Assembly: GCA_021739695.1 (NCBI GenBank)
Contig: JAIPBM010000023.1
Coordinates: forward strand, 1,156 to 65,155
Source of the DNA: Flavobacteriales bacterium
Lineage (GTDB): Bacteria > Bacteroidota > Bacteroidia > UBA10329
Reading direction: 5' to 3'
Length of the DNA stretch: 64,000 bases
Position 1 is the stretch's first letter, and each line of letters opens with the position of its first letter. Of the stretch, positions 4,017 through 64,000 are shown one piece after another. The notes under the pieces are model-generated. The model did not search any database. It worked only from the letters and a program-made list of their open reading frames with translations, and had not been told where the DNA came from. A program made the translations under genes and the position numbers.

Positions 4017-4635
4017 AATCACAACATTTTTCCTTTTCATCCTTTTTCCATTTTTCCTTTTCGCGCAGGATTGGAAAACGATTGAAGCGAGCGACCCGAT
4101 GCTAACGGGGTTGAAATCAACTTTGGCGGGAATGAATAGCATCAAAGGCGATATCAAGCAAGAAAAGAGCTTTGCATTTCTAACAGATAAACTCGTTTCC
4201 ACAGGCATTTTCCTCTATCAGAAGGAAAGCAAATTGCGTTGGGAGTTCAAAGAGCCAATTGATTATGTCATTCTCATCAACGAGAGCACCATGCGCTTGC
4301 GCGAAGAGGGCGTGGAGAAGAAATACAAGGGGATGAACCAGATCTTGCGGCAAGTGAAGGAGATCATTCTTGGTTGTATTGATGGTTCGATCATGAGTAA
4401 TTCGAACTACAAAACGGTGTTCTCGACAGACGGAACCAACATTCGAATTCAGCTTCAACCGAAGGAGAAGAACCTGAAGGAATTCATCAAGCAGATTGAT
4501 GTCGAGTTTGCAAAATCGGGTTCCATTCTAAAGAAAGTAACTTTGACCGATCCGTCTGGCGACATGACGGACATTCATTTCTCGAACGTTCAGTCCAACC
4601 AAAAGATAGATGCGGCTCTTTTTGCTGATTTTTAG
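3997..4635 (+). CDS. LolA-like outer-membrane lipoprotein carrier family protein
   Basis: Signal peptide followed by a LolA-like sequence (GDIKQEKSFAFLTDKLVSTGIFLYQKESKLRWEF). A LolA-like gene is typical of aryl-polyene/flexirubin clusters. Confidence 0.6.
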   Translation: MNPTMPKITTFFLFILFPFFLFAQDWKTIEASDPMLTGLKSTLAGMNSIKGDIKQEKSFAFLTDKLVSTGIFLYQKESKLRWEFKEPIDYVILINESTMRLREEGVEKKYKGMNQILRQVKEIILGCIDGSIMSNSNYKTVFSTDGTNIRIQLQPKEKNLKEFIKQIDVEFAKSGSILKKVTLTDPSGDMTDIHFSNVQSNQKIDAALFADF

Positions 4636-5173
4636 TCTTCTTGCCACTTCAGTTCAGGCGCAAGCTCCCGGACAGGACGTAGAAATTCTCGCTCGCGGAA
4701 AAGAGGCTATTTATAAGGCTGAATTCAATATCACGGGAACAGCGATCAACGGATTTCTTGCGGTTCAGCACAAGCGAAATGACGTGCTTCATGTGGAATT
4801 CACCTCACCAATGGGTAATAATCTGTTGGAGATAGAGTGGAAGCGGGGTAAATGGAAAAAGATCTACGCCACCAAGAAACTCAGCGGAAAGTTGATCTTT
4901 AACATGATGACGGAAGACATTCTATTGCTCTTTGCACATTATCAGTATGATCAGAGTTTTGAGGATTTTGGCAACGAATGGAAGTGGAACAAAAAGACAC
5001 TTCTTCCTGTTTTTGAGGACGGAAAACTGAGCTCGGTGAAGATCATTGGAAGACGCCATCATCCATCTAAAACGGTGAAATACAAACGTGGCGAAGATTG
5101 TATTGATGAATTAAGCATCGACCATCAAGGTTTTCCTTTTTCCATCACATTGGAACCATTGAAGAAGAAATAA
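4610..5173 (+). CDS. exported hypothetical protein (aryl-polyene cluster accessory, possibly LolB/DUF3261-like)
   Basis: 187 aa with an N-terminal signal peptide (LLATSVQAQA). Its start overlaps the 3' end of the preceding gene. Confidence 0.45.
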   Translation: MRLFLLIFSLLATSVQAQAPGQDVEILARGKEAIYKAEFNITGTAINGFLAVQHKRNDVLHVEFTSPMGNNLLEIEWKRGKWKKIYATKKLSGKLIFNMMTEDILLLFAHYQYDQSFEDFGNEWKWNKKTLLPVFEDGKLSSVKIIGRRHHPSKTVKYKRGEDCIDELSIDHQGFPFSITLEPLKKK

Positions 5174-5535
5174 TGGCAACACTTGCGGGATTTTACGAAC
5201 GAATTTCTGAAACCAAGACCGCTGCTGGTTCGGTGGTAAGTGCCAGACTCAATCCGGATCATGAAGTGTACGTTGGGCATTTTCCAGAAAAGCCTGTAGC
5301 GCCAGGTGCAGCGCTCACCCAAATGGTTTTGGATGAAGCCATCAGATTGACCAATGGTGAGAAGAAAGTGACTGAATTCCGCCAGATCAAATTCCTATCG
5401 GTTATTGATCCTACTCAAGTTCAAGATATTGAATTGGAGTTCGATTTTAGAGAACGGAATGGCGTTGATATGTTCACATGCGTTGGTCGCTCTGGCGAAA
5501 CCAATTATTTCAAGTTGAATGGCATCTTCGGATAA
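5173..5535 (+). CDS. hotdog-fold 3-hydroxyacyl-ACP dehydratase (FabZ/FabA-like)
   Basis: YVGHFPEKPVAPGAALTQMVLDEA matches the FabZ active-site region. 120 aa. Confidence 0.75.
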   Translation: MATLAGFYERISETKTAAGSVVSARLNPDHEVYVGHFPEKPVAPGAALTQMVLDEAIRLTNGEKKVTEFRQIKFLSVIDPTQVQDIELEFDFRERNGVDMFTCVGRSGETNYFKLNGIFG

Positions 5536-6718
5536 TTCGATGAATTACCGTTCTGAACTCAAGCAAATGGGAATTTGCGTGATTGTTCCTACATACAACA
5601 ATCACAAAACGGTCAAACGCGTTATTGAAAGTGTGTTGGAATACACGGATGATCTAATCGTTGTGAATGATGGTGCCACAGATGGAACGCCAGCTATTCT
5701 GGACGAATTTGGAGATAGGATCGTTCTCATTTCGTACGCTCCCAACAAAGGAAAAGGCTATGCACTGCGGATGGCTTTCGCTAAAGCAACGGAACTGGGT
5801 TATCACTACGTTATTACGATTGATAGCGATGGGCAGCATTTTGCCAATGATATTCCAAAATTCATTGAAGTGCATCGAAGTCACCCGGATGCGGTAATTA
5901 TGGGCGCCCGTAATTTGGAGGCACACGGAATGGCAGCTAAAAGCAGCTTCGCTAACCGTTTTTCCAATTTCTGGTTCCGATTACAAACGGGAATTTACAT
6001 GCCCGACACGCAGACGGGTTTTCGTTTGTATCCGCTCGAAAAGATCAGGAACCTTACGCTGTTCACCAATCGGTTTGAGTTTGAAATTGAGGTGATTGTG
6101 AAACTTGCTTGGCGCGATGTGCCGTTCGTTTCCGTACCGATACAAGTGAAGTACGATCCTAATGAACGTGTTTCACATTTCCGTCCAGGACCAGATTTCA
6201 CGCGTATCAGTTTTCTCAATGCGTGGTTCACGATTCTTACAGCGTTGTATCATCTTCCACGAAGACTGCTTTTGAAAGGGAAGCTGCTCAAGCTTATCAA
6301 AGAAGAAGCCATCAAACCAGAGGAAACCAATCTGCGCAAGGCGGCAAGCATCGGTTTCGGGTTCTTCTTCGGAATTCTACCTATTTGGGGATTTCAGTTG
6401 TTAATTGGTATTCCAACCGCCATTTTTCTACGGATGAATAAGGTGCTGTTCATTACAGCGGCAAACATCAGTTTGCCACCGCTCATTCCGTTCATCATCT
6501 TCTTCAGCTACTTAATGGGACAGCCGTTCGTGGATGGCGAACCAATTCCATTTGATAAACTATCTGAGCTATCGCTGGATAATATCCACGATAGTTACAT
6601 CCAATATGTGATTGGAGCAATTCTGCTCGCAATCTCTACAGGATTGATGGGTTTCTTGGTGAGTTGGATAACGCTTACAGTCCTTCGGAAAGACCCTGAA
6701 GCGGTTCAAAGTGTCTGA
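5519..6718 (+). CDS. family-2 glycosyltransferase fused to C-terminal DUF2062-like membrane domain
   Basis: N-terminal GT-A fold motifs (CVIVPTYNN, TIDSDGQH), then 3-4 TM helices. This fusion is typical of aryl-polyene/flexirubin loci. Confidence 0.75.
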   Translation: MASSDNSMNYRSELKQMGICVIVPTYNNHKTVKRVIESVLEYTDDLIVVNDGATDGTPAILDEFGDRIVLISYAPNKGKGYALRMAFAKATELGYHYVITIDSDGQHFANDIPKFIEVHRSHPDAVIMGARNLEAHGMAAKSSFANRFSNFWFRLQTGIYMPDTQTGFRLYPLEKIRNLTLFTNRFEFEIEVIVKLAWRDVPFVSVPIQVKYDPNERVSHFRPGPDFTRISFLNAWFTILTALYHLPRRLLLKGKLLKLIKEEAIKPEETNLRKAASIGFGFFFGILPIWGFQLLIGIPTAIFLRMNKVLFITAANISLPPLIPFIIFFSYLMGQPFVDGEPIPFDKLSELSLDNIHDSYIQYVIGAILLAISTGLMGFLVSWITLTVLRKDPEAVQSV

Positions 6719-7302
6719 ACTTCCTTGTGACGGAAGCAATCTACCGTATGGTCGTTTACCATACCAGTTGCCTGCATGTGAGCGTAGATAACTGTTGGCC
6801 CAACGAATTTGAATCCGCGTTTCTTGAGGGCTTTACTGATCTGTTCGGCCAATTCAGTTTTGGCAGGAATGTCTTTTAGCGAAGCCAAGGAATTCTGCAT
6901 CGGCTTCCCATCTACAAAATCCCAAATGTATTTGCTGAACGAACCGAATTCCTTTTGAATTTGAATGAAAGCCTGCGCATTTGAAACAGCTGCGCGAATC
7001 TTGGCTCCATTTCGGATAATACCAGCGTCAGCCATCAGGCTTTCAAGCTTAGCATCATCGTATGTGGCCACTTTTTTTACGTCAAAATGGTCGAATGCCG
7101 CACGGAAATTCTCGCGCTTGCGAAGCACTGTGATCCAACTCAATCCGGCTTGGAATGTCTCTAATATCAGAAACTCGAAAAGCCGCTGTTCATCAAACAG
7201 CGGCACTCCCCATTCTTCATCGTGATAAGAGATGTAAAGCGGATCATCAGAAACCCAGCCGCAACGTTTTTTTGCTTGTGGATGATGATTCATATCGTTC
7301 AA
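6706..7302 (-). CDS. tag: DNA-3-methyladenine glycosylase I
   Basis: CGWVSDDPLYISYHDEEWGVPLFDEQRLFEFLILETFQAGLSW is the canonical Tag N-terminus. Confidence 0.9.
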   Translation of the reverse strand: MNDMNHHPQAKKRCGWVSDDPLYISYHDEEWGVPLFDEQRLFEFLILETFQAGLSWITVLRKRENFRAAFDHFDVKKVATYDDAKLESLMADAGIIRNGAKIRAAVSNAQAFIQIQKEFGSFSKYIWDFVDGKPMQNSLASLKDIPAKTELAEQISKALKKRGFKFVGPTVIYAHMQATGMVNDHTVDCFRHKEVQTL

Positions 7303-7311
7303 AAGGAGTAG

Positions 7312-7686
7312 TTACCCTTTCTTCTTTACGATCTTTGCTTCTTTTATGAACTTACCATTCACTGATTCGCCAAGAATCACGACTTCTTTCGATTTTTCGT
7401 AATCCTTAACTGCTAGCATCATTTCATCTTCAGTATCCCTTCTGATCTTGATTCCGGATACTGCACCCGTATTACGCACTTCAATATAATAGCCGTCTTT
7501 AAGCTTCTTCGGTCTTGTAGGAGGTCTTCCCATGTCTTGTTTTGTTCTTTTTTCACACCAAGCTCGAACAATATCATGTTCAACTCGGCCTTTACTCTTC
7601 GGTGTGAAATATAGGTATTTGAACCATACTAGGATAAAATAACTGTCAATAAGTCTTAACCGATACATGTTGATTCTGAAATTCAA
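7312..7686 (-). CDS. small hypothetical protein (start uncertain; internal ATG at 7533 would give 74 aa)
   Basis: ORF only. Lys-rich, no recognisable motif. Confidence 0.3.
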   Translation of the reverse strand: MNFRINMYRLRLIDSYFILVWFKYLYFTPKSKGRVEHDIVRAWCEKRTKQDMGRPPTRPKKLKDGYYIEVRNTGAVSGIKIRRDTEDEMMLAVKDYEKSKEVVILGESVNGKFIKEAKIVKKKG

Positions 7687-7799
7687 TGATTTCTGAGTTC
7701 AAAATGCAATTATTCAGGTTAAATTTTGTTGATTTCCGATGGTTTATAACCGACAGAAAGACCGATTCATAATCGTTTAGTAATCGAAAGCAACTGTAA

Positions 7800-7807
7800 T
7801 ACCTTTG
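7800..7807 (+). promoter_or_regulatory. putative Bacteroidota sigma-A -7 element (TAccTTTG) upstream of ispH
   Basis: Matches the TAnnTTTG consensus, about 20 nt upstream of the ATG at 7828. Confidence 0.3.
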
Positions 7808-7827
7808 CAACCGAATTCTGTAAGTAG

Positions 7828-9057
7828 ATGAAACAGTTCGACATACCTGAGTTTTACCGTAGTCCGATCATCGGACCGCTGAAAGAAATGCGCAAGAGCA
7901 AAGATCCGCGTAAGCAGGACTTTACGCCAACGTTGCTCGACTTCGGTCCGGTTCAGTTTTACATCGCGCGGCATTTTGGCTTCTGTTATGGAGTGGAGAA
8001 TGCGATTGAAATATCCTATCGCGCACTAAGCGAGAATCCAGGGAAACAGATTTTTCTCTTGAGTCAAATGATCCATAACCCTGCTGTGAATGACGATCTT
8101 CAAGGTCATGGTATTCAATTTATCATGGATACCTACGGAAATCAGCTTATTCCTTGGGATGATATTTCTTCGGATGATATTGTCATTACGCCTGCATTCG
8201 GAACAACGGTTGAGATTGAAGATCTATTGAAACAAAAAGGCATTCAGCCTGAATTGTACAATACAACATGTCCGTTTGTCGAGAAAGTATGGAAACGGTC
8301 TTCCAAATTGGGTGAGGACGATTTTACCGTCATTATTCACGGAAAACAGAAACACGAAGAAACGCGAGCAACGTTTTCGCACAGCTATCAAAATGCGCCA
8401 TCGTTGGTCATAAAAGACCTGAATGAAGCGCACATTTTGGGCGAGATCATTATGGGCAAACGCCCGGTGGAAGAGTTTGAAAATCAATTTCGTGATCGTG
8501 CATCCGAAGGTTTTGACCCGAACACACATTTCGACCGCATTGGAGTGGTGAACCAAACAACCATGTTGGCCACGGAAACACAGGCCATTGCCGATCACCT
8601 CAAAAATGTGGTGCTTGAGAAATTTGGGGAAGCGAATTCTAAGCAACATTTTGCTGATACGCGTGACACGCTTTGCTATGCTACCAACGATAATCAATCT
8701 GCAACGTACGGCTTGATGGAAACCGATGCTGACCTGGCCATTGTGGTTGGAGGTTACAATAGTTCCAATACATCGCATTTGGTGGAGTTGCTCGAAGAGA
8801 AATTCCCAACCTATTTTATCAGTTCAGAGAATGAGATAAAAGATGATGCAAGCGTTGAGCATTTCAATTTCCATGAAGGAACTATTGGTCAAACGTCCGA
8901 TTTCTTACCCAAAACCGACCGACCATTGAAAATTGCATTGACCAGTGGTGCATCGTGCCCTGATTCGGTGGTTGACCGTGTGCTTCAAAAAGTGCTTTCC
9001 TACTTTACTGGAAGTCGGGAAATAGGGAAGGTGATGGAGGAGTTGGAGGTGAATTAA
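7828..9057 (+). CDS. ispH: 4-hydroxy-3-methylbut-2-enyl diphosphate reductase (long Bacteroidota form)
   Basis: FGFCYGVENAIEISYRAL and TCPFVEKVWK motifs (LytB Cys ligands). 409 aa. Confidence 0.9.
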   Translation: MKQFDIPEFYRSPIIGPLKEMRKSKDPRKQDFTPTLLDFGPVQFYIARHFGFCYGVENAIEISYRALSENPGKQIFLLSQMIHNPAVNDDLQGHGIQFIMDTYGNQLIPWDDISSDDIVITPAFGTTVEIEDLLKQKGIQPELYNTTCPFVEKVWKRSSKLGEDDFTVIIHGKQKHEETRATFSHSYQNAPSLVIKDLNEAHILGEIIMGKRPVEEFENQFRDRASEGFDPNTHFDRIGVVNQTTMLATETQAIADHLKNVVLEKFGEANSKQHFADTRDTLCYATNDNQSATYGLMETDADLAIVVGGYNSSNTSHLVELLEEKFPTYFISSENEIKDDASVEHFNFHEGTIGQTSDFLPKTDRPLKIALTSGASCPDSVVDRVLQKVLSYFTGSREIGKVMEELEVN

Positions 9058-12040: not shown

Positions 12041-14077
<2,037 letters not shown>

Positions 14078-14089
14078 TTTGGCGGCTGA

Positions 14090-15553
14090 ATGCTGAATTA
14101 TCTTAAAACCCACAAACTCGCATGGCTGGTCACAGCGGTGTATGGCGTGGTTTTCTGTCTGATCTCGCTGATCAATCACTACAATTTCAGAACCTACGGG
14201 CTCGATCTGGGCATTTACACCCATGGGATCTATAGCTATTCTCACCTGCATTGGCATCAATTCACGCTTGGATTGGAAGGTGAATCATTCAATCATTTGG
14301 GGAATCATTTCTCACCGATTGTCGCGCTGCTTTCGCCCTTCTATTACCTTTTCGGGACCTACACGCTTCTGATTCTTCAGATTGCTGCCATTGTCTTTGG
14401 CGGGTGGGGCATTTATCTATTTGCGAAGGAACGACTGGAAGGATTTCAGCCAGAGTTGGTCATGGTGCTATTCTTCAGCATGTGGGGCATTTATTCGGCC
14501 TTGGCTTACGATTGGCATGCGAACGTGATGGCCGCCATGTTCGTGCCATGGTTCATCCTGTTCTACGAACGAAAAGATTGGAAAAAAGCCATGATGATGT
14601 TCGTCCTAGTGCTCATTTGCAAAGAAAACATGGCTGTTTGGATGGCTGCGATCTTAGCTGGATTGGCCGTTCGTGATTTCTTCCTAAAACCGAATCAGAC
14701 CAACTGGCTTTTCCTTGGTTCATTACTTGGTTCAGCTATAGTTTATTTTCTCGTTGTTCAGGCGGTCATCATGCCTGCACTGAACACGGCAGGTGTTTCT
14801 GATCATCTCGGTAATTACAGCCATTTGGGTAACGGACCGGTTGGAGTAATCAAGACCATGCTTGGTAAGCCACGGCACATTTTCTATCTGATGTTTGAGA
14901 GTTTGCAGAACGATCCTTTAACCTTCATGCTCAAATCACAGTTGCATTTCATGGTATTGGTTTCTGGTGGATTTGCTTTGATCTATCGTCCACATTACCT
15001 CATCACGCTAGCGCCCATTTACGCGCAGAAATTGTTGTCGTCAAATCCAGCGCATTGGGGCGTTTATTCTCAATATTCGATTGAGTTCGCGCCCATCATT
15101 GCATTGGCTTTTGTTGAATGGATGCAGCATTTTCCTTTCGAAAAGTGGAAGACGACTTTGCTTATTGGTACGATTGCCACGGCAACGTTTTTCAATTGGC
15201 ATCCAACACGACCGAATACGGGTTTTTATCAATCGGCACATTACCAATCGGGATTGAACTCAGAAGCCATTTACAATGCGTTGGAATTAATTCCTGCCGA
15301 TGCGGTTGTTTCGGCAAGTAATGTGATTGTGCCGCATGTTGCTGATCGGGAAAAAATCTATTTGTTTCCAGTTGTAAAGGATGCGGATTATCTGGCCATT
15401 CTAACTCACGGCCGCGACCTTTATCCAGTTGATAGTCTCGAATTTCCGCAGAAAATGGTGGAACTTAGAAGCGATTCCTTGAACGAGATCATTTATGACG
15501 AGAATGATTTCCTCATCATCAAACGGAAAGTTATTTCCGAAGGAATGAGATAA
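14090..15553 (+). CDS. polytopic membrane protein, DUF2079 family
   Basis: 487 aa with >10 TM helices. N-terminal sequence resembles DUF2079 proteins. Confidence 0.55.
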   Translation: MLNYLKTHKLAWLVTAVYGVVFCLISLINHYNFRTYGLDLGIYTHGIYSYSHLHWHQFTLGLEGESFNHLGNHFSPIVALLSPFYYLFGTYTLLILQIAAIVFGGWGIYLFAKERLEGFQPELVMVLFFSMWGIYSALAYDWHANVMAAMFVPWFILFYERKDWKKAMMMFVLVLICKENMAVWMAAILAGLAVRDFFLKPNQTNWLFLGSLLGSAIVYFLVVQAVIMPALNTAGVSDHLGNYSHLGNGPVGVIKTMLGKPRHIFYLMFESLQNDPLTFMLKSQLHFMVLVSGGFALIYRPHYLITLAPIYAQKLLSSNPAHWGVYSQYSIEFAPIIALAFVEWMQHFPFEKWKTTLLIGTIATATFFNWHPTRPNTGFYQSAHYQSGLNSEAIYNALELIPADAVVSASNVIVPHVADREKIYLFPVVKDADYLAILTHGRDLYPVDSLEFPQKMVELRSDSLNEIIYDENDFLIIKRKVISEGMR

Positions 15554-16475
15554 AATCAGCCACTGATCTTTCAGGAATTTCTTCCATCGGAACGTGACCC
15601 ATGTTTTCGTAGATCAAGAGTTCTGAATTTGGAATGTCGGCATGGAACTTAGCCGCAGCTTCCACATTTACCAATCCATCCGAATCTCCCCACATGATAA
15701 GTGTTGGACATTTGATCTGTTTGACTTCTTCAGAATGATCGTAATTGATCTGTCGCGTCTTGCCCATCAAACCAGCGCGGTTTCCTTCGCGAAGCAATAA
15801 TTCGTGATAACGTTCCACCAATTCCTCTGTGATCTTCCAATCATCGAAATAAACCACTTTGACCGATTTTCTTACCAACGATTGAGGCGTAAGATGCAGC
15901 AAAACAGGTTTCATCCAGTCCATTTTCTGAAGTTTGAAACTTACAGGCGTAGGCTGATCTCCACGTGGATAACCGCTTGAATTGAGCACAGCCAACTTCT
16001 TCACCTTATCGGGATGATTGACAGCAAAGCTCCATGCCATATATCCACCGAAGGAATTACCGGCCATGTAGCACGTGTCCACATTCAGTTTCAGTAAAAC
16101 ATCTTCAATGAATTTTTGGTACCGTTCGCGGGTGTAATTGTCGTTCGGTTCAGGTCCAGTAATGCCGAAACCGGGCATATCGAAACTCACCACGCGGTAA
16201 TATTTCGAAAGTTCGTTCGTCCAGCCTTCCCAAGTGTGCAAAGAGGAAGCCGTTCCATGCAAAAGCACCACCGTTTCGCCTGTGTCGCCATTGATGCGAT
16301 AATGAACCTGCATGCCATCCAATTCTACGAACTGCGAATTGTCGTAAGCATATTTTTCGATGATCTCTTCAACCGGAATATCATCATGCCAAGAAGATGC
16401 TATGAATCCACAGACGAGACCAACTAGGCCGATAAGAATAAGACGGATGGCTATTTTCATTTTGATTTGGTTCAA
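15531..16475 (-). CDS. alpha/beta-fold hydrolase
   Basis: HGTASS oxyanion region, GNSFGG nucleophile elbow, C-terminal His. Signal peptide or TM at the N-terminus. Confidence 0.8.
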   Translation of the reverse strand: MNQIKMKIAIRLILIGLVGLVCGFIASSWHDDIPVEEIIEKYAYDNSQFVELDGMQVHYRINGDTGETVVLLHGTASSLHTWEGWTNELSKYYRVVSFDMPGFGITGPEPNDNYTRERYQKFIEDVLLKLNVDTCYMAGNSFGGYMAWSFAVNHPDKVKKLAVLNSSGYPRGDQPTPVSFKLQKMDWMKPVLLHLTPQSLVRKSVKVVYFDDWKITEELVERYHELLLREGNRAGLMGKTRQINYDHSEEVKQIKCPTLIMWGDSDGLVNVEAAAKFHADIPNSELLIYENMGHVPMEEIPERSVADFISFLRK

Positions 16476-17347
16476 AGATGCTTCGGTCGCTCTGGTTCAG
16501 AATGCTGAATTACAGAACGAATCTCATCTTTTTCGATGATAATGAGTTTTTGCTTGTAAAGTCCTCCGATGGCTTTTTTGAAGAGTTTCTTACTCATATG
16601 TAATTGTTCCTCAATGTCTTCGGGTGCGCTTTTGTCGGATAGGTGAAGAACCCCTTTGTTTCGGTTCAATGCATCCAAAATCTTACGAGAGTTGGGTTCG
16701 ATGCTTGCCACTCCCAACGGTTCAAGGCTTACATCGATCTTACCGTCTTCACGAACCAGTTTGATGTAGCCTTTGGTTTCATCACCAACCTCAATTGGTC
16801 GAAAAACCTCGTTTTCATACACCAATCCACCGTGCTTACGATTGATCATTACCTGAAAACCAAGTTCGGTTTCATTATAAACTACAAGATCGACTTCTTG
16901 ACCAGTTTTTAATTGGATGTCAGATTGATCCAATAGTTTTCCGATGCGCGGAGTTGCCACTAAGCGTTCCGATTTTTCGTCCAGGAAAACGCCAACTAAA
17001 TATTTTTTGCCCACTTCCATTTGTTCCACCATTTCGGCATACGGAACAAAAAGATGTTTCTCCAAACCCCAGTCCAAAAACGCTCCGATCCGATTCACAG
17101 AATGAACTTCAAGCCATTCGAATTTACCCAACGAAATGCGTGGTGTCTGAGTAGTGGCAACAGGGCGTTCTTCGGTATCCAAGTAAACGAAAACAGTGAG
17201 TTCATCGCCTTCTTGCATGCCTGGTTTCAGGTATTTGTTGGGCAATAGGATAACGTCATCGTAGCCAGCATCTGGCTCGCCCAAATAGGCACCAACGCTG
17301 GTAAATCTGTGAATGGTAAGTGTATTGTATTCGCCTATTTTGAACAC
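16472..17347 (-). CDS. S1 RNA-binding domain protein, CvfB/YitL family
   Basis: Repeated S1-like units and a C-terminal winged-helix; N-terminus EYNTLTIHRFTSVGAYL. Confidence 0.7.
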   Translation of the reverse strand: MFKIGEYNTLTIHRFTSVGAYLGEPDAGYDDVILLPNKYLKPGMQEGDELTVFVYLDTEERPVATTQTPRISLGKFEWLEVHSVNRIGAFLDWGLEKHLFVPYAEMVEQMEVGKKYLVGVFLDEKSERLVATPRIGKLLDQSDIQLKTGQEVDLVVYNETELGFQVMINRKHGGLVYENEVFRPIEVGDETKGYIKLVREDGKIDVSLEPLGVASIEPNSRKILDALNRNKGVLHLSDKSAPEDIEEQLHMSKKLFKKAIGGLYKQKLIIIEKDEIRSVIQHSEPERPKHL

Positions 17348-55549: not shown

Positions 55550-56272
55550 TTGAGCCGAATCAAAAAACAGAACATCATGGAGATCATCGTCAAATCACTG
55601 CTATTTCTACACGTTTCATTCGGATTTACAAGCCTGCTGCTTTTCTGGCTTCCTGTCTTTATGAAGAAAGGAGGGAAGGGCCATCGTGTGGTTGGGAAAC
55701 TCTATGTATTAGCCATGTGGGTGGTGGTTACATCGGCTGCGCTGCTCTGCATCAAGAATGTCATCATCGGGAAGTATTTCATGGCGGTTTTTCTAGGATT
55801 CATCTCGCTTATCACGGCCAATCCACTTTGGTACGGTATGGCCATTCTGAAGCCAAGGGTGTACGAAACAAGCGCATTCCATTGGAAACGTACGGCATTT
55901 GATGGTCTCATCGTTTTGGCAGGCGCCTTGATGCTTGTTTACGGTATCATCCTCGAAGGAAAAGATTCAGCGGTGCTTATGCTCATTTTCGGTTGCTTGG
56001 GGCTTACAGGCATTCCATCCTTCATTAAGAATCTGAAAGGTCCGCGCGAAAAGGAAGACCGGATCCGTCTTCACATGATCGGTATGCTTACCAGTGGAAT
56101 TGCTGCTTACACAGCCTTTTTCGTGTTTGGTGGCTATACATGGATGAGCAAATTGCTTCCTGGTATGTGGGGCATTCTTCCGTGGACAGCACCTGGATTG
56201 ATCGGTGCCATTGGCATTAACTATGGCGTGAAGTATTTTCGAAAAAAGGGAATGATTTCCGAGCAGCATTAG
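55550..56272 (+). CDS. hypothetical polytopic membrane protein
   Basis: 6 predicted TM helices; no motif. Confidence 0.45.
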   Translation: MSRIKKQNIMEIIVKSLLFLHVSFGFTSLLLFWLPVFMKKGGKGHRVVGKLYVLAMWVVVTSAALLCIKNVIIGKYFMAVFLGFISLITANPLWYGMAILKPRVYETSAFHWKRTAFDGLIVLAGALMLVYGIILEGKDSAVLMLIFGCLGLTGIPSFIKNLKGPREKEDRIRLHMIGMLTSGIAAYTAFFVFGGYTWMSKLLPGMWGILPWTAPGLIGAIGINYGVKYFRKKGMISEQH

Positions 56273-57708
56273 CACGCTGCGATCTCGGAAAGGTGCGTGA
56301 GCTCGGTTTGGTGTAGGATGGGTTGATCTTGGTTCTTTCCCAGTATCAGCACAGAGAATTCTTCCGTTCGGTCGATATTGAAGATCTTGTTGCAATTGAT
56401 AAGGTCGTAGCGCGCAACTACCCGTTTCCGATGCAATAGATGATGCCAAAGGCGCTTGTTCACAGGGTCTGAAAGCGTAGAACCTTTCAAGATCAGACCG
56501 ACCGAGCTCCGTTCCGTACCAAGACTGTCGCAGAGCTCGGTGAAAAGAACGTTGGTCTGCAAGCCGCCCATACAGGAATGGTCAAACCGTTCATCGTTGT
56601 AGACATTCTCCATGGCCACGTCAACAGCTTCATCATGCATCAGCAGCCAACGGTACAATTCGGGATGCGATTCTTCCAGTATTTCCAATGCTGTGTCCAG
56701 CTCCTCTTCATCGTCTATTTCTGCCAAACGCGGACAAAGAAGATGCAGGTAGTGGCTCAGGTCAAAACCGATGCTTCCCCATGGAGGATTGCCAATGATC
56801 ACATCACAGCGTTGAATTTGATCTGGTCTTAAAGCAAGCCCGTTGTGATAATAGAAGTTAGGTGAATGATCAAAGGCATCAGCTTCGTCATCAGGCCAAA
56901 TGAGGGGATTTCCGTTGACGAAACGTTTACTCAGTTCAGGGTAAAGCGCAAGTCCATCTACTGCTTCCAACACACATATTCGTGCAATTTCCAGCGATAT
57001 GGAATCTGCTTCGATGGCATGAAAGTTCAGCACCATCTTCTTTAGGTCCTCATGTGAAAGGCAAAGATGCTTCTTGAAATATCGGATAAGGGCAAGGAAA
57101 AAACTTCCCGTTCCGCAAGAATGGTCTGCGTAGGAGGAGTTCCGTAGAAGTTCTGTGACGCGTTCCAGATCGGCTTCTGAGCTTTGCAACTTGGAAAACT
57201 GCTCTATTCCCAGGTTCTTCAAAATGTAATTGTCGATGGTGAGTTGCACCAAAGTATCGGCAAGGAGTGTGGGCGTGTAAAACGAACCAATGGAGTTCAA
57301 ATGCTCCTTGTCGTCCATAATAACGCCATCCCGTACAGGGAATTCGAGCAGCAGCATTGATTCGTAGAGGTCCGACAGTTCCACCCGTGCTAGGTGCTGT
57401 GACTTAAACCAATCGAGGAAAGTGGTAAGCGCTTGCTTTTCGGCCTTACTCAGCAGATTGAAGCTGGCTGTGAAAGTATTTTCTCCAGCCAAACTGCCTT
57501 TAAGTGATTGGAACACATCGTTCAGAGCTAATGAATCAGGTCCGTTCAGATTGTGTTCGGCAACTATTCCAAGGACAGTCGATTGCATGCGATGAATGCT
57601 TGCAAAATAGGCACTCGGCTGGCAAATGGCCCCATCTTCCACCAGTATTTCCTGCTTAAGTGCAGTTAAAATGGCGTTGGAAGTATGGTGACAGATAGCT
57701 TGTAGCAT
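56269..57708 (-). CDS. N6-adenine-specific DNA methyltransferase (gamma-class, HsdM/Eco57I-like), solitary
   Basis: Motif X (GSFYTP), motif I (DHSCGTGSFF), motif IV (VIIGNPPWG). No adjacent specificity or restriction subunit. Confidence 0.7.
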   Translation of the reverse strand: MLQAICHHTSNAILTALKQEILVEDGAICQPSAYFASIHRMQSTVLGIVAEHNLNGPDSLALNDVFQSLKGSLAGENTFTASFNLLSKAEKQALTTFLDWFKSQHLARVELSDLYESMLLLEFPVRDGVIMDDKEHLNSIGSFYTPTLLADTLVQLTIDNYILKNLGIEQFSKLQSSEADLERVTELLRNSSYADHSCGTGSFFLALIRYFKKHLCLSHEDLKKMVLNFHAIEADSISLEIARICVLEAVDGLALYPELSKRFVNGNPLIWPDDEADAFDHSPNFYYHNGLALRPDQIQRCDVIIGNPPWGSIGFDLSHYLHLLCPRLAEIDDEEELDTALEILEESHPELYRWLLMHDEAVDVAMENVYNDERFDHSCMGGLQTNVLFTELCDSLGTERSSVGLILKGSTLSDPVNKRLWHHLLHRKRVVARYDLINCNKIFNIDRTEEFSVLILGKNQDQPILHQTELTHLSEIAAC

Positions 57709-59006: not shown

Positions 59007-59420
59007 TTAGTTTCCTATTTCAATTTGTTGTTCTACAAAGTTCTTGTAGGCTTTCGTTTTGAAGGTAAACCAATCTTGTCGGTACGCTGATGCATCAATC
59101 AGAATCTTGAAGTTCTGAAACGGTTTTTTTTCCGAAAGTTTGCCTAAAATTCTTTGCTTAAAGTTGGAGTCCGTCAATGAATGGGCGAAATTCTCCAATA
59201 CCTGGAATCCTTGATTTGAATCCATTTTTACAAATGACTGATAGTTTTCCACGTCATTTTCAATTTTGTCAATGACGTCTTGCCAAGGTTCTGGGTCGAA
59301 GTAAGGGTCGTCTGGGTCAGGGTGAGATTCAATGGTGCCAGTTGGTCGATGATAGTAGCACCTCATTCCGCAATCGAGTAGGTCGGAAATTTCTGCGATT
59401 TGTTCCTCTGTCAACTTCAT
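59007..59420 (-). CDS. small acidic cytoplasmic hypothetical protein
   Basis: ORF only; 137 aa; immediately downstream of the lipoprotein gene. Confidence 0.4.
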   Translation of the reverse strand: MKLTEEQIAEISDLLDCGMRCYYHRPTGTIESHPDPDDPYFDPEPWQDVIDKIENDVENYQSFVKMDSNQGFQVLENFAHSLTDSNFKQRILGKLSEKKPFQNFKILIDASAYRQDWFTFKTKAYKNFVEQQIEIGN

Positions 59421-59425
59421 TTGGC

Positions 59426-60001
59426 TTAAAAATAGCCAAAAGTTATTGTGTTAAGATCAGTTATAAACTGATCGTGTTTCATTCCACACAAGTCATCCTT
59501 CGGAAGACTTGCGCGAGCGGGGGTTCGTGATTTATTTTCTTTTTCAAGGTTAATGTCGTCAAGCAAGCTACTCATTAGGTCAAAGCCTTCGTCATTAAGC
59601 CCTCCCCATTTCGTCAGCGAATTGTAAGGTTGGAATTCCCATTGATTATAACCGCATCTGATTTCAATAATTCCTCTGACCGTTTCATCTTTTAAAACCA
59701 GTATCAACGCGTTTGTGTGGAATGTCCCACAGTCACCGTTAGAATAATAAGCGCTATCTGATATGAGTTGTTGGAGTTTCGCTTTCTGCGAATCTGTCAG
59801 GATAAACTCCCCTTCAGAACCAACGTAATCCAATGGATCTACGTCCATTGTCTCAATGGTCGGAAAGTTGTCAAAATTTAACTGAACGTAGTGAACTGAG
59901 TAATCCTTGTCAGAAAGTTGTGTCCAATCAAAATCCAGAGACTTGTTTCGAGAGGAGCAAGCACTTACAAATAGAAGTAAGCTTAATAGAATGTGTCTCA
60001 T
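59426..60001 (-). CDS. hypothetical lipoprotein
   Basis: Lipobox FVSACSS; 191 aa. Confidence 0.45.
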   Translation of the reverse strand: MRHILLSLLLFVSACSSRNKSLDFDWTQLSDKDYSVHYVQLNFDNFPTIETMDVDPLDYVGSEGEFILTDSQKAKLQQLISDSAYYSNGDCGTFHTNALILVLKDETVRGIIEIRCGYNQWEFQPYNSLTKWGGLNDEGFDLMSSLLDDINLEKENKSRTPARASLPKDDLCGMKHDQFITDLNTITFGYF

Positions 60002-60015
60002 TTCGTCATGACGCC

Positions 60016-60139
60016 CAACGGTTTCCGCTATGAAAATAGGGCTTTAACTCCTTCGACCTTTCAGCCCGATGCCGAACTTGGTAGAAACCACTAAGGCTTG
60101 CGTGCTTGTCGTCACGCCCTATTTACATAGCAGTTGTTG
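60016..60139 (-). repeat. attC-like imperfect palindromic element, variant B (same termini as the 60872/62467/63211 copies, different centre)
   Basis: 5' CCAACGGTTTCCGCTATGAAAATAGGGC ... GCCCTATTTACATAGCAGTTGTTGTG 3'. The termini are inverted repeats of each other. Contains the stop codon of ORF 60112..60873. Confidence 0.5.
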
Positions 60140-60873
60140 TGTGCTGGCATTTTCATTTTTTCGTTCGTCTGTTCTGTAATTCGTCTATTTCTTGATTTAA
60201 TAAACTCCATTACTCGGCTTTTGTAAACCAAATACTCGTCAATGACAGCAAAGGCTGGTTTTGATTTAAAGTTGTCAAACGGCAGATAGAACTTGATGTT
60301 TTGGTTTTCGTCAATAAGGTCATCAAGCAAGAAAAATTGAACATATCCTTCAAAGTTGTCAAACAGATTGAAGAAGCTTTCGTACCTCAAGAAGGTGTCG
60401 TAAAGGGGGCTTTCTTGTCCCAAATAGAATAAGCGAATACACTCTAATGTAAGGTCAAATCTGTCGTCAATGAAGCTATTTACTCCTCTTGCTTGATTGA
60501 TGGTGAATTTGTTGTCAATCTTGTTTTTCGGAAATACGGTGTATGCCCCGATTGTGCTTCCTGTATCAAAAAGCTCGTCAACCTCATTTGGGATTTGCTT
60601 TGTAAGCCAATGTTTCCGTTTCTGGTTTCTGTATGAGTGAGTTATTGCGTCACTACCCAAGATAAATTCTCCTAAAGATGACTTGTGATATAGGTAGGTA
60701 CCTTGTCTATTGTCGGTTAATTCGAAATGCTGTCCGCTTGGCAAAGGTTTACTCCATAGGATTTTGTGGTATCTCCTCAATGTCGGACTTGTACTGTCTG
60801 GGTCACCACCTCTTGCGTCAGAGTAAAAATTGAAGTCTATGTCGATTTGCGTTGTCATTTTTTGCTTGCACAC
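60112..60873 (-). CDS. hypothetical protein (cassette-like ORF; probable ATG start at 60858)
   Basis: 253-aa ORF, no recognisable domain. The stop codon lies inside the downstream palindromic element. Confidence 0.45.
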   Translation of the reverse strand: MCKQKMTTQIDIDFNFYSDARGGDPDSTSPTLRRYHKILWSKPLPSGQHFELTDNRQGTYLYHKSSLGEFILGSDAITHSYRNQKRKHWLTKQIPNEVDELFDTGSTIGAYTVFPKNKIDNKFTINQARGVNSFIDDRFDLTLECIRLFYLGQESPLYDTFLRYESFFNLFDNFEGYVQFFLLDDLIDENQNIKFYLPFDNFKSKPAFAVIDEYLVYKSRVMEFIKSRNRRITEQTNEKMKMPAHNNCYVNRA

Positions 60874-60998
60874 AACGTTTGCCGCTAAAGATAATGCGTT
60901 AGAAACTGCCGTCCTTTCGCCATGCGCAGAGAGCGCAGAACGAAATTGAGACTGACTGACGTACTGTCGCGAGCATTAGGTTTAGTGGTTGTTGGCAA
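60872..60998 (-). repeat. attC-like imperfect palindromic element, variant A copy 1 (~127 bp)
   Basis: About 90% identical to copies at 62467..62589 and 63211..63335. Termini CAACGTTTGCCGCTAAAG ... TTTAGTGGTTGTTGGCAA form an imperfect inverted repeat with asymmetric spacers. Contains the stop codon of ORF 60982..62469. Confidence 0.55.
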
Positions 60999-62469
60999 AT
61001 CGTTGTTTCTCCCAGATATAAACACCACCAGCTACCTTGTCGTCATTAATTCGTTCGAAACGAGAGCCGATAATTGCTCTGTCGTTTTCCATATCTACTG
61101 AAAATCCGAACTTGAGCCAACTTCTTTCCTGCACTGAGGTAAGTTTTTCAAGTTCTTTCCATCTGCCATTGGGAGTCAACTGAAAAACATAGGCGGCTCC
61201 GTGATAAAGTGCTTCTGCTGGGTCAGTGTTTTCCAATGCATCTGCAAATGCACCAACGATTAGCAAGCTGTCGTGAGCGCTTAAACACATTCCGAATTTA
61301 TCGTCAGCACCACGGTCAGAAGCAGTAATTTCCTGAGAAACTTTCCACATGCCATCCGCATCTTTCTCATACACAAAGACAGAACCAGCCCCAGCCTTTC
61401 TTTCTTCATGCTGCTCCCACGTTTCAACCCTCACGGCTTCTTCTCTGAATTTCTCTTTCGTAATATTCATTGATTCTAAAGTAGAAGGGTCGTTGGGAAT
61501 CAGTTCGATTGCCATCTGATAACCATCATCTGTCTCGGTCATTATGCGCATCACAAAAACCGAATCTGTTGCTGGCAGTGTATCTATATCGAATAGCTTA
61601 TAGCTGGTTTCTCCTTCGGCACCAACAAAGAGATAGTCGTCTGTCACGCAAACAGAACTTGCAAAGTGCCTTACACTGCTATTAGGACTGACCAGTTTCT
61701 GCTTGAAAACAGCTTTCAGACTCTCATCTAGATCATAGAGGTACGCACTATTGCTCTGTGCTGCGGTAATCAGGACGTGGCGGTCAGACATGGAAATCGA
61801 ATAACCGAAATTTTTAACGCCTTCAGGCGGCTGTATTTGGTCTCTCTGAATCCACTTGCCATTATCAGTCAACTGATAAATGAACACCGTACCTGAGGTT
61901 GAAGGGTTTTCACCGCGCTTGTACATGTGGGCAGAAACGATGAGTTTACCATTCTGCAACATGAGATTCTTTCCGAAATTATCGCTTTGGGATGGAGAAG
62001 GAATGGTAAGCGTCTGTGTTAATTTCCAAATTCCATCAGCGCCTTTCTCGTACATGAATACAGCCCCTTCCCTGATTCTATGCTCACCGTCATCATCCAC
62101 TTGATCGAAGCCGTTGGCTCCAACCGCTAAATGGTTTCCGTTGATGCTCACCGCTGTTCCGAACCAATCATTTGCTTTAGGGTAGGGTGCGGTTAGCTGT
62201 TGTGATTCCTTCCATGTTCCGGTAGTTGTTCGTTGAAAAACATAAACCGCACCTGCGTTTACAATCGTGTCCTTGTTAACAGCAATTTGATAATGGGGTG
62301 CGCCAGACACGGCTTGATCTTTCGAAATACTGGTAGACCAACCTATTACCTCACCTTCTTGTCTGTTGGTGTCGTCCAATTTTTGAAATGTTCCTTGGGC
62401 ATGGCAGGAGCCGAGATAGAGGAAGAATAAAATAAAGTGTGATAAAAGCTTCATTACAATGTTTGCCAA
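60982..62469 (-). CDS. secreted FG-GAP/integrin-alpha-like beta-propeller repeat protein (probable ATG start at 62454)
   Basis: Signal peptide (LLSHFILFFLYLGSCHAQG); repeated GAVYVF...W...FG.AVSI.GN.L.VGA units. Confidence 0.6.
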   Translation of the reverse strand: MANIVMKLLSHFILFFLYLGSCHAQGTFQKLDDTNRQEGEVIGWSTSISKDQAVSGAPHYQIAVNKDTIVNAGAVYVFQRTTTGTWKESQQLTAPYPKANDWFGTAVSINGNHLAVGANGFDQVDDDGEHRIREGAVFMYEKGADGIWKLTQTLTIPSPSQSDNFGKNLMLQNGKLIVSAHMYKRGENPSTSGTVFIYQLTDNGKWIQRDQIQPPEGVKNFGYSISMSDRHVLITAAQSNSAYLYDLDESLKAVFKQKLVSPNSSVRHFASSVCVTDDYLFVGAEGETSYKLFDIDTLPATDSVFVMRIMTETDDGYQMAIELIPNDPSTLESMNITKEKFREEAVRVETWEQHEERKAGAGSVFVYEKDADGMWKVSQEITASDRGADDKFGMCLSAHDSLLIVGAFADALENTDPAEALYHGAAYVFQLTPNGRWKELEKLTSVQERSWLKFGFSVDMENDRAIIGSRFERINDDKVAGGVYIWEKQRFANNH

Positions 62470-62589
62470 CGGTTTCCGCTAAAGATAATGCGTTAGAAAC
62501 TGCCGTCCTTTCGCCATGCACGGACAGCGCAGAACGAAACTGAGACTGACTGACGTACGGTCGCACGCATTAGATTTTAGCGGTTGTTG
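62467..62589 (-). repeat. attC-like imperfect palindromic element, variant A copy 2
   Basis: CAACGGTTTCCGCTAAAGATAATGCGT ... ACGCATTAGATTTTAGCGGTTGTTGGCAA. Contains the stop codon of ORF 62577..63197 and ends ~12 bp before the next ORF's ATG. Confidence 0.55.
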
Positions 62590-63197
62590 GCAATTGTAAT
62601 TTCTTTTCCGTCCCCGACTTCCAAAACAAGAAGAACCGCGATAATGTCAGGAATGATTAGAAAGCCGTACATGGTCGTGCTTAGTTCACCGTACCAATAA
62701 GGAGCTGCAAACATTAGAACAGCGCTGTAAACAAACATTAAAACAAACGCTGCTATCGAACCTTTCGCCCATTGTTTCATACGGATAAAGCGAGAATTTA
62801 AGTCGTCCGATTTTGCCCTAAGAATTAAAACCACCATAGCAATTCCTAAGAAAGCCGAAAGAATTTCAACGGCAGTCGAGCCAACCTGAGGGAGAAAGTC
62901 CGAAAACCTTGAACCAATCCCCAAAAGCTGGTAGATGATTTCGACAAACAAATTAAGTTTTGTGACTAGCACCAATTTGTCCAAGCGGTTATAAGCAAAG
63001 TAGTCTATAAAGAACTTATAGATGTAAACAGTACAAAGGATACTACCAATCGTGATGAACGACCATTGTACATCGTCAGGCTTTCCAGTTTTGATATATA
63101 GAAATTCAAGTGCGATGAATATTGTATTCACAATACTGTAACCAAAAGCAAAAAGCAAAAGGTTTCTCCTTTCTGATGTGATTGAAAATGTGTCCAT
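62577..63197 (-). CDS. hypothetical polytopic membrane protein (cassette-like ORF)
   Basis: 206 aa, ~6 TM helices. C-terminal residues ...IANNR and the stop codon are encoded by the repeat. Confidence 0.45.
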   Translation of the reverse strand: MDTFSITSERRNLLLFAFGYSIVNTIFIALEFLYIKTGKPDDVQWSFITIGSILCTVYIYKFFIDYFAYNRLDKLVLVTKLNLFVEIIYQLLGIGSRFSDFLPQVGSTAVEILSAFLGIAMVVLILRAKSDDLNSRFIRMKQWAKGSIAAFVLMFVYSAVLMFAAPYWYGELSTTMYGFLIIPDIIAVLLVLEVGDGKEITIANNR

Positions 63198-63210
63198 TTT
63201 TTATAATTGC

Positions 63211-63335
63211 CAACGGTTGCCGCTAAAGATAATGCGTTAGAAACTGCCGTCCTTTCGCCATGCACGGACAGCGCAGAACGAAACTGAGACTGACTGACGT
63301 ACGGTCGCACGCATTAGGTTTAGTGGTTGTTGGGG
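63211..63335 (-). repeat. attC-like imperfect palindromic element, variant A copy 3
   Basis: Near-identical to copy 2 as far as GTTGTTGG, then diverges (GGTTAG vs CAA), as expected for a recombination crossover point. Confidence 0.55.
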
Positions 63336-63375
63336 TTAGTTTTTTATTTCCAAGTTTCTATTGACCTTGAATAAC

Positions 63376-63885
63376 TCACAAGATTTCAGGGCGTTGTTTC
63401 ACAGGGTTGAACGGTTGAATTGTCTTATGAATCGGTACATCTTTAAGGCTTTCAATTTCCTTTTCAACAAAGGGAGTTACCAGATTTGTGATAATAATGT
63501 CAGGCCTGTTGTTTTTCAGATGAACCTGCGCAAAATGGTAAGTTGACATACTCAAGAAATGAATGTGCGACCGAGCTTTAATGGCGGCAGACATATTTAA
63601 GGTAATTCGGTCTATCTCATTCGCATAGATAAGTGTCTCATTTCCGGTTGACGTCCTTACCTGTATTGCTCTGGAACTTATACTGAATTCAACCCCTTTG
63701 TTTAATTCATAGTATTGCCAATGAAGGTAAATTGTCGGTGCTGCATCCAATATCGCTATCACACCTAGACTCAATGCAATGCCAACATCAAATCCTGAAA
63801 GAATAATGACTACCGCAAGGATTACGTTATGAAATATGAACACTCCTAGAGCTTCAAACTGATTTTTCTTCGTAATCCTAAGCAT
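63376..63885 (-). CDS. hypothetical membrane-anchored protein (2 N-terminal TM + ~100-aa soluble domain)
   Basis: ORF only; possible bacterial PH-like domain. Confidence 0.4.
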   Translation of the reverse strand: MLRITKKNQFEALGVFIFHNVILAVVIILSGFDVGIALSLGVIAILDAAPTIYLHWQYYELNKGVEFSISSRAIQVRTSTGNETLIYANEIDRITLNMSAAIKARSHIHFLSMSTYHFAQVHLKNNRPDIIITNLVTPFVEKEIESLKDVPIHKTIQPFNPVKQRPEIL

Positions 63886-63953
63886 TCCTAAAACCCAATC
63901 CTATCTTCTAATAAACAAGTTCCATTTAGTCAAAAACATTGATTAAGAAACCC

Positions 63954-64000
63954 AATTTTCAAGATGCGCCAAAATTAACCCCAACGGGTTACTGCTATGA
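63954..64000 (-). repeat. start of a further attC-like element (variant-B-like terminus), truncated by window end
   Basis: CCCCAACGGGTTACTGCTATGA resembles the 60016 terminus CCCAACGGTTTCCGCTATGA. Confidence 0.35.

Follow-up and report, generated by a model that had tools for sequence, protein, structure and literature searches.

The stretch analysed here (the window) comprises 64,000 nt of contig JAIPBM010000023.1 (assembly GCA_021739695.1) from a Flavobacteriales bacterium. Its last 4 kb contain four complete palindromic elements of ~130 nt (E1–E4) and the start of a fifth (E5), and three of the elements are entered by the 3' end of a gene. All coordinates are window positions on the plus strand, and the genes of the array all lie on the minus strand. 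Read along the gene strand, the elements have the layout xxxxxxAAC – AAC – C(A/G)CTAAA ... TTTAGCG – GNAAC(C) – GTTxxxxxx, which corresponds to the R''-L''...L'-R' order of an integron attC site. E2–E4 are 85-93% identical to one another, and E1 and E5 have only the end boxes in common with them. A search with the element-end pattern gave 4 matches within the last 4 kb and 6 in total, against 0.75 expected. Judged from the sequence evidence set out below, this region is very probably an integron-like array of gene cassettes, with the palindromes as its attC-type recombination sites. The candidate sites, the cassettes and their open reading frames (ORFs) are as follows.

63977..64000, minus strand: E5, attC-type site, 3' end only (L'-spacer-R' GTTGGGGTT), cut by the window end
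63206..63337, minus strand: E4, attC-type site; R'' AACCCCAAC complements the E5 R'; own R' GTTGGCAAT
62462..62594, minus strand: E3, attC-type site; R'' ATTGCCAAC, spacer AAC, L'' CGCTAAA; L' TTTAGCG, spacer GAAACC, R' GTTGGCAAA
60868..60999, minus strand: E2, attC-type site; R'' TTTGCCAAC complements the E3 R'; own R' GTTGTGTGC
60011..60144, minus strand: E1, attC-type site of another sequence family with the same architecture; R'' GCACACAAC complements the E2 R'; own R' GTTGGGCGT
63214..63984, minus strand: cassette A, 771 nt, from the TT of the E5 GTT to the G of the E4 GTT
63376-63885, minus strand: ORF of cassette A, 169 aa, no family match, stop 39 nt short of E4
62470..63213, minus strand: cassette B, 744 nt
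62577-63197, minus strand: ORF of cassette B, 206-aa membrane protein
60876..62469, minus strand: cassette C, 1594 nt
60982-62454/62469, minus strand: ORF of cassette C, FG-GAP repeat protein
60019..60875, minus strand: cassette D, 857 nt
60112-60858/60873, minus strand: ORF of cassette D, DUF6994 protein

The two alternative starts reflect the database-annotated products P0001 and P0241, which begin at 60858 and 62454, respectively, instead of at the GTG/TTG starts of the ORF list. Every time, the ATG of the following gene lies 16-18 nt past the G of the 3' GTT box. E1 is the last array site within the window; the array extends upstream on the gene strand, and by orientation its head lies beyond 64000. 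A PADLOC search with the cassette proteins of the window gave no match.

Chain rule and hairpin structure of the sites

The 5' box of each element is complementary not to the element's own 3' box but to that of its upstream neighbour, which forms the 5' end of the element's own cassette. All four box pairs of the window are complementary at 9/9 positions:

E5 R' GTTGGGGTT with E4 R'' AACCCCAAC
E4 R' GTTGGCAAT with E3 R'' ATTGCCAAC
E3 R' GTTGGCAAA with E2 R'' TTTGCCAAC
E2 R' GTTGTGTGC with E1 R'' GCACACAAC

To compare the sites with those of other genomes, we scanned one genome per species with a 21-nt stretch of E2–E4. The scan returned 25 loci (related loci carry L numbers here), nearly all of them labelled Flavobacteriales, Chryseobacterium or other Bacteroidota metagenome-assembled genomes. 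Searched with a profile, the 8-kb loci showed 1-5 copies each, often arrayed, and both the E2–E4 type and the E1 type of site occur again in other genomes. When the last 14 kb of the window were compared with these loci by BLAST, the elements matched and the cassette genes and flanks did not.

The chain rule holds widely among the related loci. Among 35 consecutive candidate pairs, which still contain scanner false positives, 19 match at 6/6 variable positions and 4 at 5/6, and only one of the 35 matches its own 3' box at 6/6. The first hairpin scanners were permissive (164 hits in real against 75 in shuffled sequence; 42 against 3 at a strict threshold), and the chain rule served as an independent filter for their hits. 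Such a rule marks cassettes that can circularise and are joined at G|TT, the presumed crossover point. Locus L018 (CAZSYV010000174.1), a 4.6-kb contig labelled uncultured Klebsiella sp., carries four chained sites of this Flavobacteriales family, and its label is probably a binning error.

The hairpin was drawn by hand and tested with controls in which the partner column was slid. Across 51 aligned sites from many loci, 82.9% of the cells are paired, compared with 35-47% for slid partner columns, and the covariation score is 0.357, compared with at most 0.123 in the slid controls. Changes on both sides were found in 6/7 pairs of the L helix and in 8/8 pairs of the distal helix, and the AAC and the GTT are invariant in 51/51 copies. 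The folded site is consistently asymmetric, with a 2-4 nt one-sided bulge between the R and L helices, and a G.T pair stands beside AAC/GTT in 49/51 copies. RNAalifold returned no pairs on a MAFFT alignment of the 51 sites, because indels between the site families put the middle part out of register.

A conserved A-rich motif, (A/G)AAA(A/C)AAC(T/G)A, lies just 5' of R'' in the window (63338-63350, 62595-62606 and 61000-61010). It is present at that position in most related copies as well. As it is kept whether or not an ORF overlaps it, the conserved site family reaches past the classical attC boundary.

Scans for other functions were negative. An Rfam scan of the region gave no match, and Rfam holds no attC family; a terminator scan found no terminator-like site coinciding with the elements and no enrichment; and there was no excess of sigma-70-type promoters in a scan that does not cover Bacteroidota promoter types. 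A candidate -7-box promoter in the site (TAnnTTTG-like TATCTTTA) was dropped, as the motif is missing from the other site families and its -33 spacing is wrong.

Every copy of the E2–E4 type also contains ORFs of 59-120 aa (MRPYVSQSQFRSALSVHGERTAVSNALSLA...) inside the site itself. Gene callers could annotate these ORFs, although they are almost certainly artefacts of sequence conservation within the site:

62351-62566, minus strand: ORF inside an attC-type site
63128-63310, minus strand: ORF inside an attC-type site
60922-61101, plus strand: ORF inside an attC-type site
L007 6387-6749: ORF inside an attC-type site of a related locus

Gene ends inside the sites

In 3/4 complete cassettes the ORF overlaps the element:

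62577..62594, minus strand: overlap of ORF 62577-63197 with E3, 18 nt; last codons ATT GCC AAC AAC CGC TAA, protein end IANNR; R'', spacer and L'' encode the last 5 codons and the stop
60982..60999, minus strand: overlap of ORF 60982-62469 with E2, 18 nt; last codons TTT GCC AAC AAC CAC TAA, protein end FANNH
60112..60144, minus strand: overlap of ORF 60112-60873 with E1, 33 nt; last codons GCA CAC AAC AAC TGC TAT GTA AAT AGG GCG TGA, protein end AHNNCYVNRA

The earlier note on this DNA had placed the tails and stop codons of these three ORFs within the palindromic elements, with Asn-Asn codons that are the reverse complement of a GTTGTT box, a stop early in the element and the next ATG shortly after it. 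All of this is borne out: the tails are element sequence over the 18, 18 and 33 nt listed, the Asn-Asn pair consists of the outer AAC of the 5' box and the AAC spacer, the stop codon ends 9 or 24 nt past the outer AAC, and the next ATG follows at the distance given above.

The same use of the site is seen elsewhere. Among 47 curated copies from the window and the related loci, 18 are entered by an open frame of at least 50 codons. In 11 of these 18 the frame reads AAC as Asn and ends at +9, on the TAA within the L'' stem, or at +24 if the site is of the E1 type; the other 7 use the +2 frame, whose stop falls within R'' or immediately ahead of it. None (0/18) uses the third frame, in which many copies have no early stop and stay open for ~35 codons.

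The earlier note had also proposed an alignment with homologues, and outside cassettes the FG-GAP and DUF6994 homologues indeed end earlier or differently. Distant FG-GAP homologues finish at ...GGVYIWEK or at most 3 residues from there. Only the FG-GAP protein of the window and its two closest relatives go on past YIWEK, with QRFANNH, QRFGNTSYEK and QRFGNTTNTN, respectively, and judged against the homologues ending in ...YIWEK the element-derived tail is QRFANNH. An attC-type site again follows the gene of one of these close relatives (L118). In the DUF6994 proteins, conservation stops at ...SRN(K/R)RI and the tails diverge beyond; most homologues have 232-235 aa, compared with 253 in the window. 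The MPAHNN stretch, encoded by the extended R'' (ATGCCAGCACACAACAAC), is common to only a few DUF6994 relatives, including the copy of Tenacibaculum sp. UWU-22. That copy is itself a cassette with outer boundaries identical to those of the window cassette, from TTGTGTGCAAGCAAAA... to ...GCACACAAC, and the homology between the two begins exactly at GTT.

Independently of this, unrelated proteins with the same types of site behind them carry the same tails: TTANNH and VPNNR in L025, and TAHNNSYQNRA in a MORN-repeat protein of L037. Because the same tails occur on unrelated proteins and non-cassette homologues end earlier or differently, the C-terminal tails and stops are encoded by the site itself. 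For R'', an internal stop codon is already on record (PMC7691350), and a gene end that overlaps attC is ordinary, known integron biology.

Homologous cassettes may also carry different sites. In two independent cases the ORF and the extended R'' are common to both cassettes and the site interiors are unrelated, each typical of its host array:

Window 60133-60144 and L026 3473-3500 (Tenacibaculum): swapped interior, DUF6994 cassette
Window 60988-60999 and L118 4838-4870: swapped interior, FG-GAP cassette

In both, the homology ends within 1-2 nt past the AAC that belongs to R''. Swapped interiors cannot arise by canonical exchange at R' alone, and we therefore propose occasional crossovers at R'', which would preserve the chain rule. 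The comparison thus suggests that crossovers at R'' as well as at R' may exchange attC interiors between cassettes. A further DUF6994 homologue, P0007 in L029-L032 (5900-6800), has no attC and lies between direct repeats of ~60 nt, which encode an apparent C-terminal fragment of a tyrosine recombinase (...GHSDMKVSLTYLRGLEVKQLDVEDLP); this arrangement is possibly another kind of insertion module.

Two ORFs lie 3' of the last site of the window:

59426-60001, minus strand: 191 aa, lipoprotein-like
59007-59420, minus strand: 137 aa

The ATG of the first, which starts with the lipoprotein-like signal, stands 18 nt past the GTT of E1, a cassette-like spacing. We sought an attC after each of the two ORFs and found none, and 59007..60001 is either flank or a cassette with a lost site. 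About 1.3 kb past the end of the array region (59007), a 479-aa ORF (56269-57708, minus strand) gives weak N6-adenine methyltransferase / Eco57I-like matches.

Recombinase and presumed attI at the head of related arrays

In related loci whose array start is visible (L007, L025, L036, L037 and L121), a recombinase gene lies beside the array and is co-oriented with it. The clearest case is L037, where a gene for a 405-aa recombinase is followed by the perfect hairpin CTAACATCAC-ca-GTGATGTTAG, by CAAGTA and by GTTGGCGTG. Six co-oriented cassettes that obey the chain rule come next, and the first R'' (CACGCCAAC) complements the site behind the recombinase gene. The same head arrangement is seen in L036, in L007 with an IS1182 interruption, in L025 with a truncated recombinase, and in L121, which is plasmid NZ_CP041688.1 of the cultured Chryseobacterium sp. 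SNU WT5. Several metagenome contigs show it too, with recombinases that are only 33-43% identical; the metagenome scan used very general peptide patterns and returned mostly ordinary Xer/IntI-type recombinases, so that only matches including the N-terminal domain are informative. Eleven loci have a recombinase that includes this domain and 1.5 kb or more of sequence behind it; in 9 of them a cassette start, recognised by 9/9 box complementarity and a hairpin, lies 50-130 nt past the recombinase stop. Where the match to the recombinase begins only at the core-binding domain, a cassette start is mostly absent.

The small hairpin directly after the recombinase stop is the presumed attI (L037 11219-11262; L007 3251-3290; L036 11165-11205). 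Its arms resemble the L box of attC (e.g. GCTAAAG...CTTTAGC) and are followed by a 5-nt spacer and GTT. Canonical attI sites are not known to be hairpins.

The recombinase has an invariant R-K-H-R-H-Y catalytic set (alignments A3 and A7) and matches Pfam PF00589 and PF13495. By sequence and by predicted structure its closest relatives are archaeal XerA enzymes (4a8e, 5hxy), followed by VchIntIA. The IntI additional domain is lacking: the alignment with VchIntIA (2a3v) falls into two stretches, and opposite VchIntIA residues 186-242 the query has no more than 14 residues. An IntI1 sequence leaves the same gap. The additional domain has been located around patch III (PMC9668308, citing Messier & Roy 2001). 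Among the curated families, TIGR02249 (integron integrase) scores 224.3 bits in two stretches, below its cut-off of 265, and NF040815 ('XerA/integron integrase'), the best NCBIfam family, passes with 231.5 bits at a cut-off of 220. Because it fails on both the additional domain and the curated score, the recombinase is not filed as IntI. Residues 1-72 form an extra, beta-rich N-terminal domain that is confidently predicted, followed by a disordered linker; this domain might bind the A-rich motif 5' of R''.

The related arrays have further contents of their own. L121 contains an IS110-family transposase and a group II intron reverse transcriptase (13272-17054) as well as three copies of a short gene-less cassette with a 77-nt site, and the L007 array contains an IS1182 transposase (4142-5728). 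The first cassette of L037 (11302-13480) encodes an EcoRI-type methylase and a GmrSD/HNH-type nuclease and resembles a defence module. In L025, the sequence immediately before the truncated recombinase gene turns very G+C-rich (5650-8000) and has long overlapping ORFs on both strands, which suggests a chimeric assembly or a foreign insertion.

Our model for the window array is the following. A cassette on the minus strand would begin with the TT of its upstream GTT, end with the G of the following GTT, and comprise a short 5' leader, one promoterless ORF and a ~130-nt site. The site would read R''(xxxxxxAAC), a 2-3 nt spacer, L'', a variable middle, L', a 5-6 nt spacer and R'(GTTxxxxxx). Since the site abuts the gene without spare sequence, the reading frame would run on through R'' and the spacer until it meets the TAA that is part of L'' (C[A/G]C TAA), or in the E1 type a TGA 24 nt in. 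The recombination site would dictate the last 5-10 residues and the stop, which would be tolerated as a short tail. The enzyme, which we infer from the related loci and not from the window, would be a tyrosine recombinase encoded immediately upstream of the array and co-oriented with it, with an intact RKHRHY set, an extra N-terminal domain and no IntI-specific additional domain, and it would act on the small hairpin attI just past its own stop codon.

The earlier note had preferred attC sites at the 3' ends of integron cassettes, and the chain rule, the hairpin covariation and the homologue comparison agree with that preference. Some observations weigh against it. No tyrosine recombinase of the array-associated family lies in the window, and the link to the recombinase rests on other genomes. 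The related array L118 violates the chain rule, with GCT instead of GTT. For the 206-aa membrane protein of cassette B, only relatives of 21-29% identity were available for the comparison of tails. Extrahelical bases at fixed stem positions govern strand choice in canonical attC sites, and no such base is fixed in position among the 51 copies; an extra base lies on the '' arm in the E3 type and on the ' arm in the E1 type. In wobble counts the bottom strand comes out ahead overall, with 130 G.T to 32 A.C, but this folding bias is gone for unique variants of the L helix (7 against 12), and we therefore make no claim on strand choice. The elements appear to have all attC and cassette features tested except the fixed extrahelical bases. 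It is tempting to speculate that the missing bases and the missing IntI domain go together, as the published role of that domain would suggest.

Could the array be a classical integron, with a canonical IntI beyond the window and the domain-less recombinase either uninvolved or a Xer-type enzyme that serves another purpose? No integrase lies in the window, attC clusters without an integrase (CALINs) are common (PMC9024848), and our scanner also detects canonical integrons (L096, L090). However, wherever the start of an array is visible, in the five loci named above and in the metagenome loci alike, the gene directly upstream is the domain-less recombinase, the first crossover would fall 50-130 nt past its stop at a site that the first R'' complements, and no canonical intI was seen among the loci carrying this attC family. 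We consider this explanation unlikely.

The earlier note had offered as an alternative a mobile palindrome that inserted repeatedly at gene 3' ends and supplied new C-termini; it would resemble a miniature inverted-repeat transposable element (MITE) or a repetitive extragenic palindromic (REP) sequence. In its favour, near-identical palindromes of ~130 nt are scattered across many contigs and genomes, and the tails are element-derived. We disfavour repeated insertion because independent insertions cannot make the 5' box of one copy complement the 3' box of the previous one. In each examined array the copies all point the same way as the genes and lie on their 3' side; the flanks inspected showed no target-site duplications; homologous cassettes recur in different arrays with identical outer boundaries; and arrays begin at the recombinase gene. 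A mobile palindrome of this kind is very improbable.

Least credible of all is a coincidental overlap, in which the C-termini would be native and the palindromes, intergenic hairpins behind ORFs as they are, would be conserved terminators or regulatory hairpins: it is refuted because the homologue comparison shows the tails absent outside cassettes, and unrelated proteins carry the same tails while neither the terminator scan nor Rfam recognised the elements.

Known systems and significance

An integron-like cassette array invites comparison with sedentary chromosomal integrons such as the Vibrio cholerae superintegron with its VCR attC sites. Both have tandem, co-oriented, promoterless ORFs, each with an imperfect palindrome of ~120-130 nt and AAC...GTT ends, and in both the sites are alike within a lineage and the cassette content varies. 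The G|TT boundaries, the R'' that complements the 5' end of its own cassette and the ORFs that may end in the site are likewise shared (PMC7691350). The differences lie in the host, as Flavobacteriales belong to a group treated as nearly integron-free (PMC9024848; bioRxiv 2024.07.02.601686), in the site, which has a one-sided 2-4 nt bulge and a conserved G.T pair instead of a fixed extrahelical base and an A-rich motif 5' of R'', and in the associated recombinase without the IntI additional domain.

The 'reverse' integrons of the Treponema denticola group also have co-oriented integrase and cassettes and an attI downstream of the integrase gene (PMC7691350; PMC4889954). Their integrases were gathered through the IntI additional domain or the IntI patch (PMC2426708), whereas the recombinase described here has a beta-rich N-terminal domain of ~72 aa with a linker, and its attI would be a small hairpin with L-box-like arms. 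Short intergenic palindromes in many copies are also typical of REP sequences, bacterial interspersed mosaic elements (BIMEs) and MITEs, from which the present elements differ by their fixed orientation, the chain rule, the tie to a recombinase and the lack of target-site duplications. XerA and XerC/D form a further comparison, archaeal XerA being the closest relative of the recombinase. Xer enzymes act on short, double-stranded dif-type sites, whereas here ~120-nt hairpin sites with covarying stems and integron-type cassettes lie beside the recombinase gene.

Surveys pick integrases through the additional domain (PMC2426708; PMC4889954; PMC9668308) and would therefore miss an integrase that lacks it. 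For Bacteroidetes, only In0 elements and one complete integron (Salinibacter) have been reported (PMC9024848), and a 2024 preprint counts Bacteroidota among the clades earlier found without integrons (bioRxiv 2024.07.02.601686). A classification of tyrosine recombinases calls the insertion 'not fully conserved' in its integron-like subgroup (PMC8138268). We found no description of such a recombinase-array arrangement in the full-text literature searched; subscription journals were outside its coverage, so an earlier description is possible. Judging by the related loci, the setting appears to be an integron variant without a known description.

The recombinase family may reach further. A protein search of plasmids showed that the 'tyrosine-type recombinase' beside tet(X3) on many Acinetobacter plasmids belongs to the array-associated family, without the N-terminal part. 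It is 50% identical to P0125 over 208 residues without gaps and shows the same pattern of family scores. The locus is the following:

L120 (NZ_CP041297.1, Acinetobacter indicus p80-1-2-tetX3) 5043-7140: tet(X3) locus with its 'xerD/TnpF'-type recombinase

From the recombinase to tet(X3) it reads hairpin TATACGCCA-tt-TGGCGTATA, a 7-nt spacer and GTTATGTGC, with the ATG 12 nt on, and the stop codon of tet(X3) is followed by the A-rich motif, an R''-like box, a short hairpin and CTTGTGTGC. Thus, tet(X3) is placed behind the recombinase like a first cassette. The recurrent neighbour of tet(X), called 'xerD', has been noted without explanation (PMC7473080).

In Riemerella anatipestifer, another member of the Flavobacteriales, aph(3')-IVb integrates site-specifically after natural transformation, with no need for flanking homology, and the mobile unit is made up of a 27-bp leader, the gene itself and ~140 bp on its 3' side with an attC-like fold (PMC13148043). 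The authors identified neither an integrase nor an integron and called the mechanism unresolved (PMC13148043). The units of this species (aph(3')-IVb, lnu(H) and blaRATA) resemble the cassettes of the window in their Flavobacteriales host and in the order of short leader, coding sequence and attC-like 3' fold, and we hypothesize that they may be linked to the attC family described here. The Riemerella and tet(X3) links are leads, not proofs.

Beyond the array of the window, a wider proposal is that these loci represent an integron class for which we found no description, widespread in Flavobacteriales and other Bacteroidota, and that the window shows the distal part of one such integron. Its XerA-like integrase, with a beta-rich N-terminal domain and without the additional domain, would be co-oriented with the cassettes and act on a hairpin attI and on ~120-nt attC sites without fixed extrahelical bases, perhaps with crossovers at R'' as well as at R'. 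The class would also stand behind the Riemerella integration and be the platform from which ISCR2 picked up tet(X3) along with the truncated 'xerD'. We hold the chances for and against this proposal to be evenly balanced.

The importance of the finding lies in the host and the enzyme and not in the overlap of gene and attC by itself. In annotation, both the short ...NN[HR] tails and the spurious ORFs within the sites are best recognised as site-derived. If the enzyme moves these cassettes, the additional domain would not be universally needed to recombine folded sites, and current tools would overlook a large reservoir of cassettes. There would also be a testable explanation both for the 'xerD' beside the tet(X) tigecycline-resistance genes (PMC7473080) and for the integration of resistance genes without homology in Riemerella (PMC13148043).

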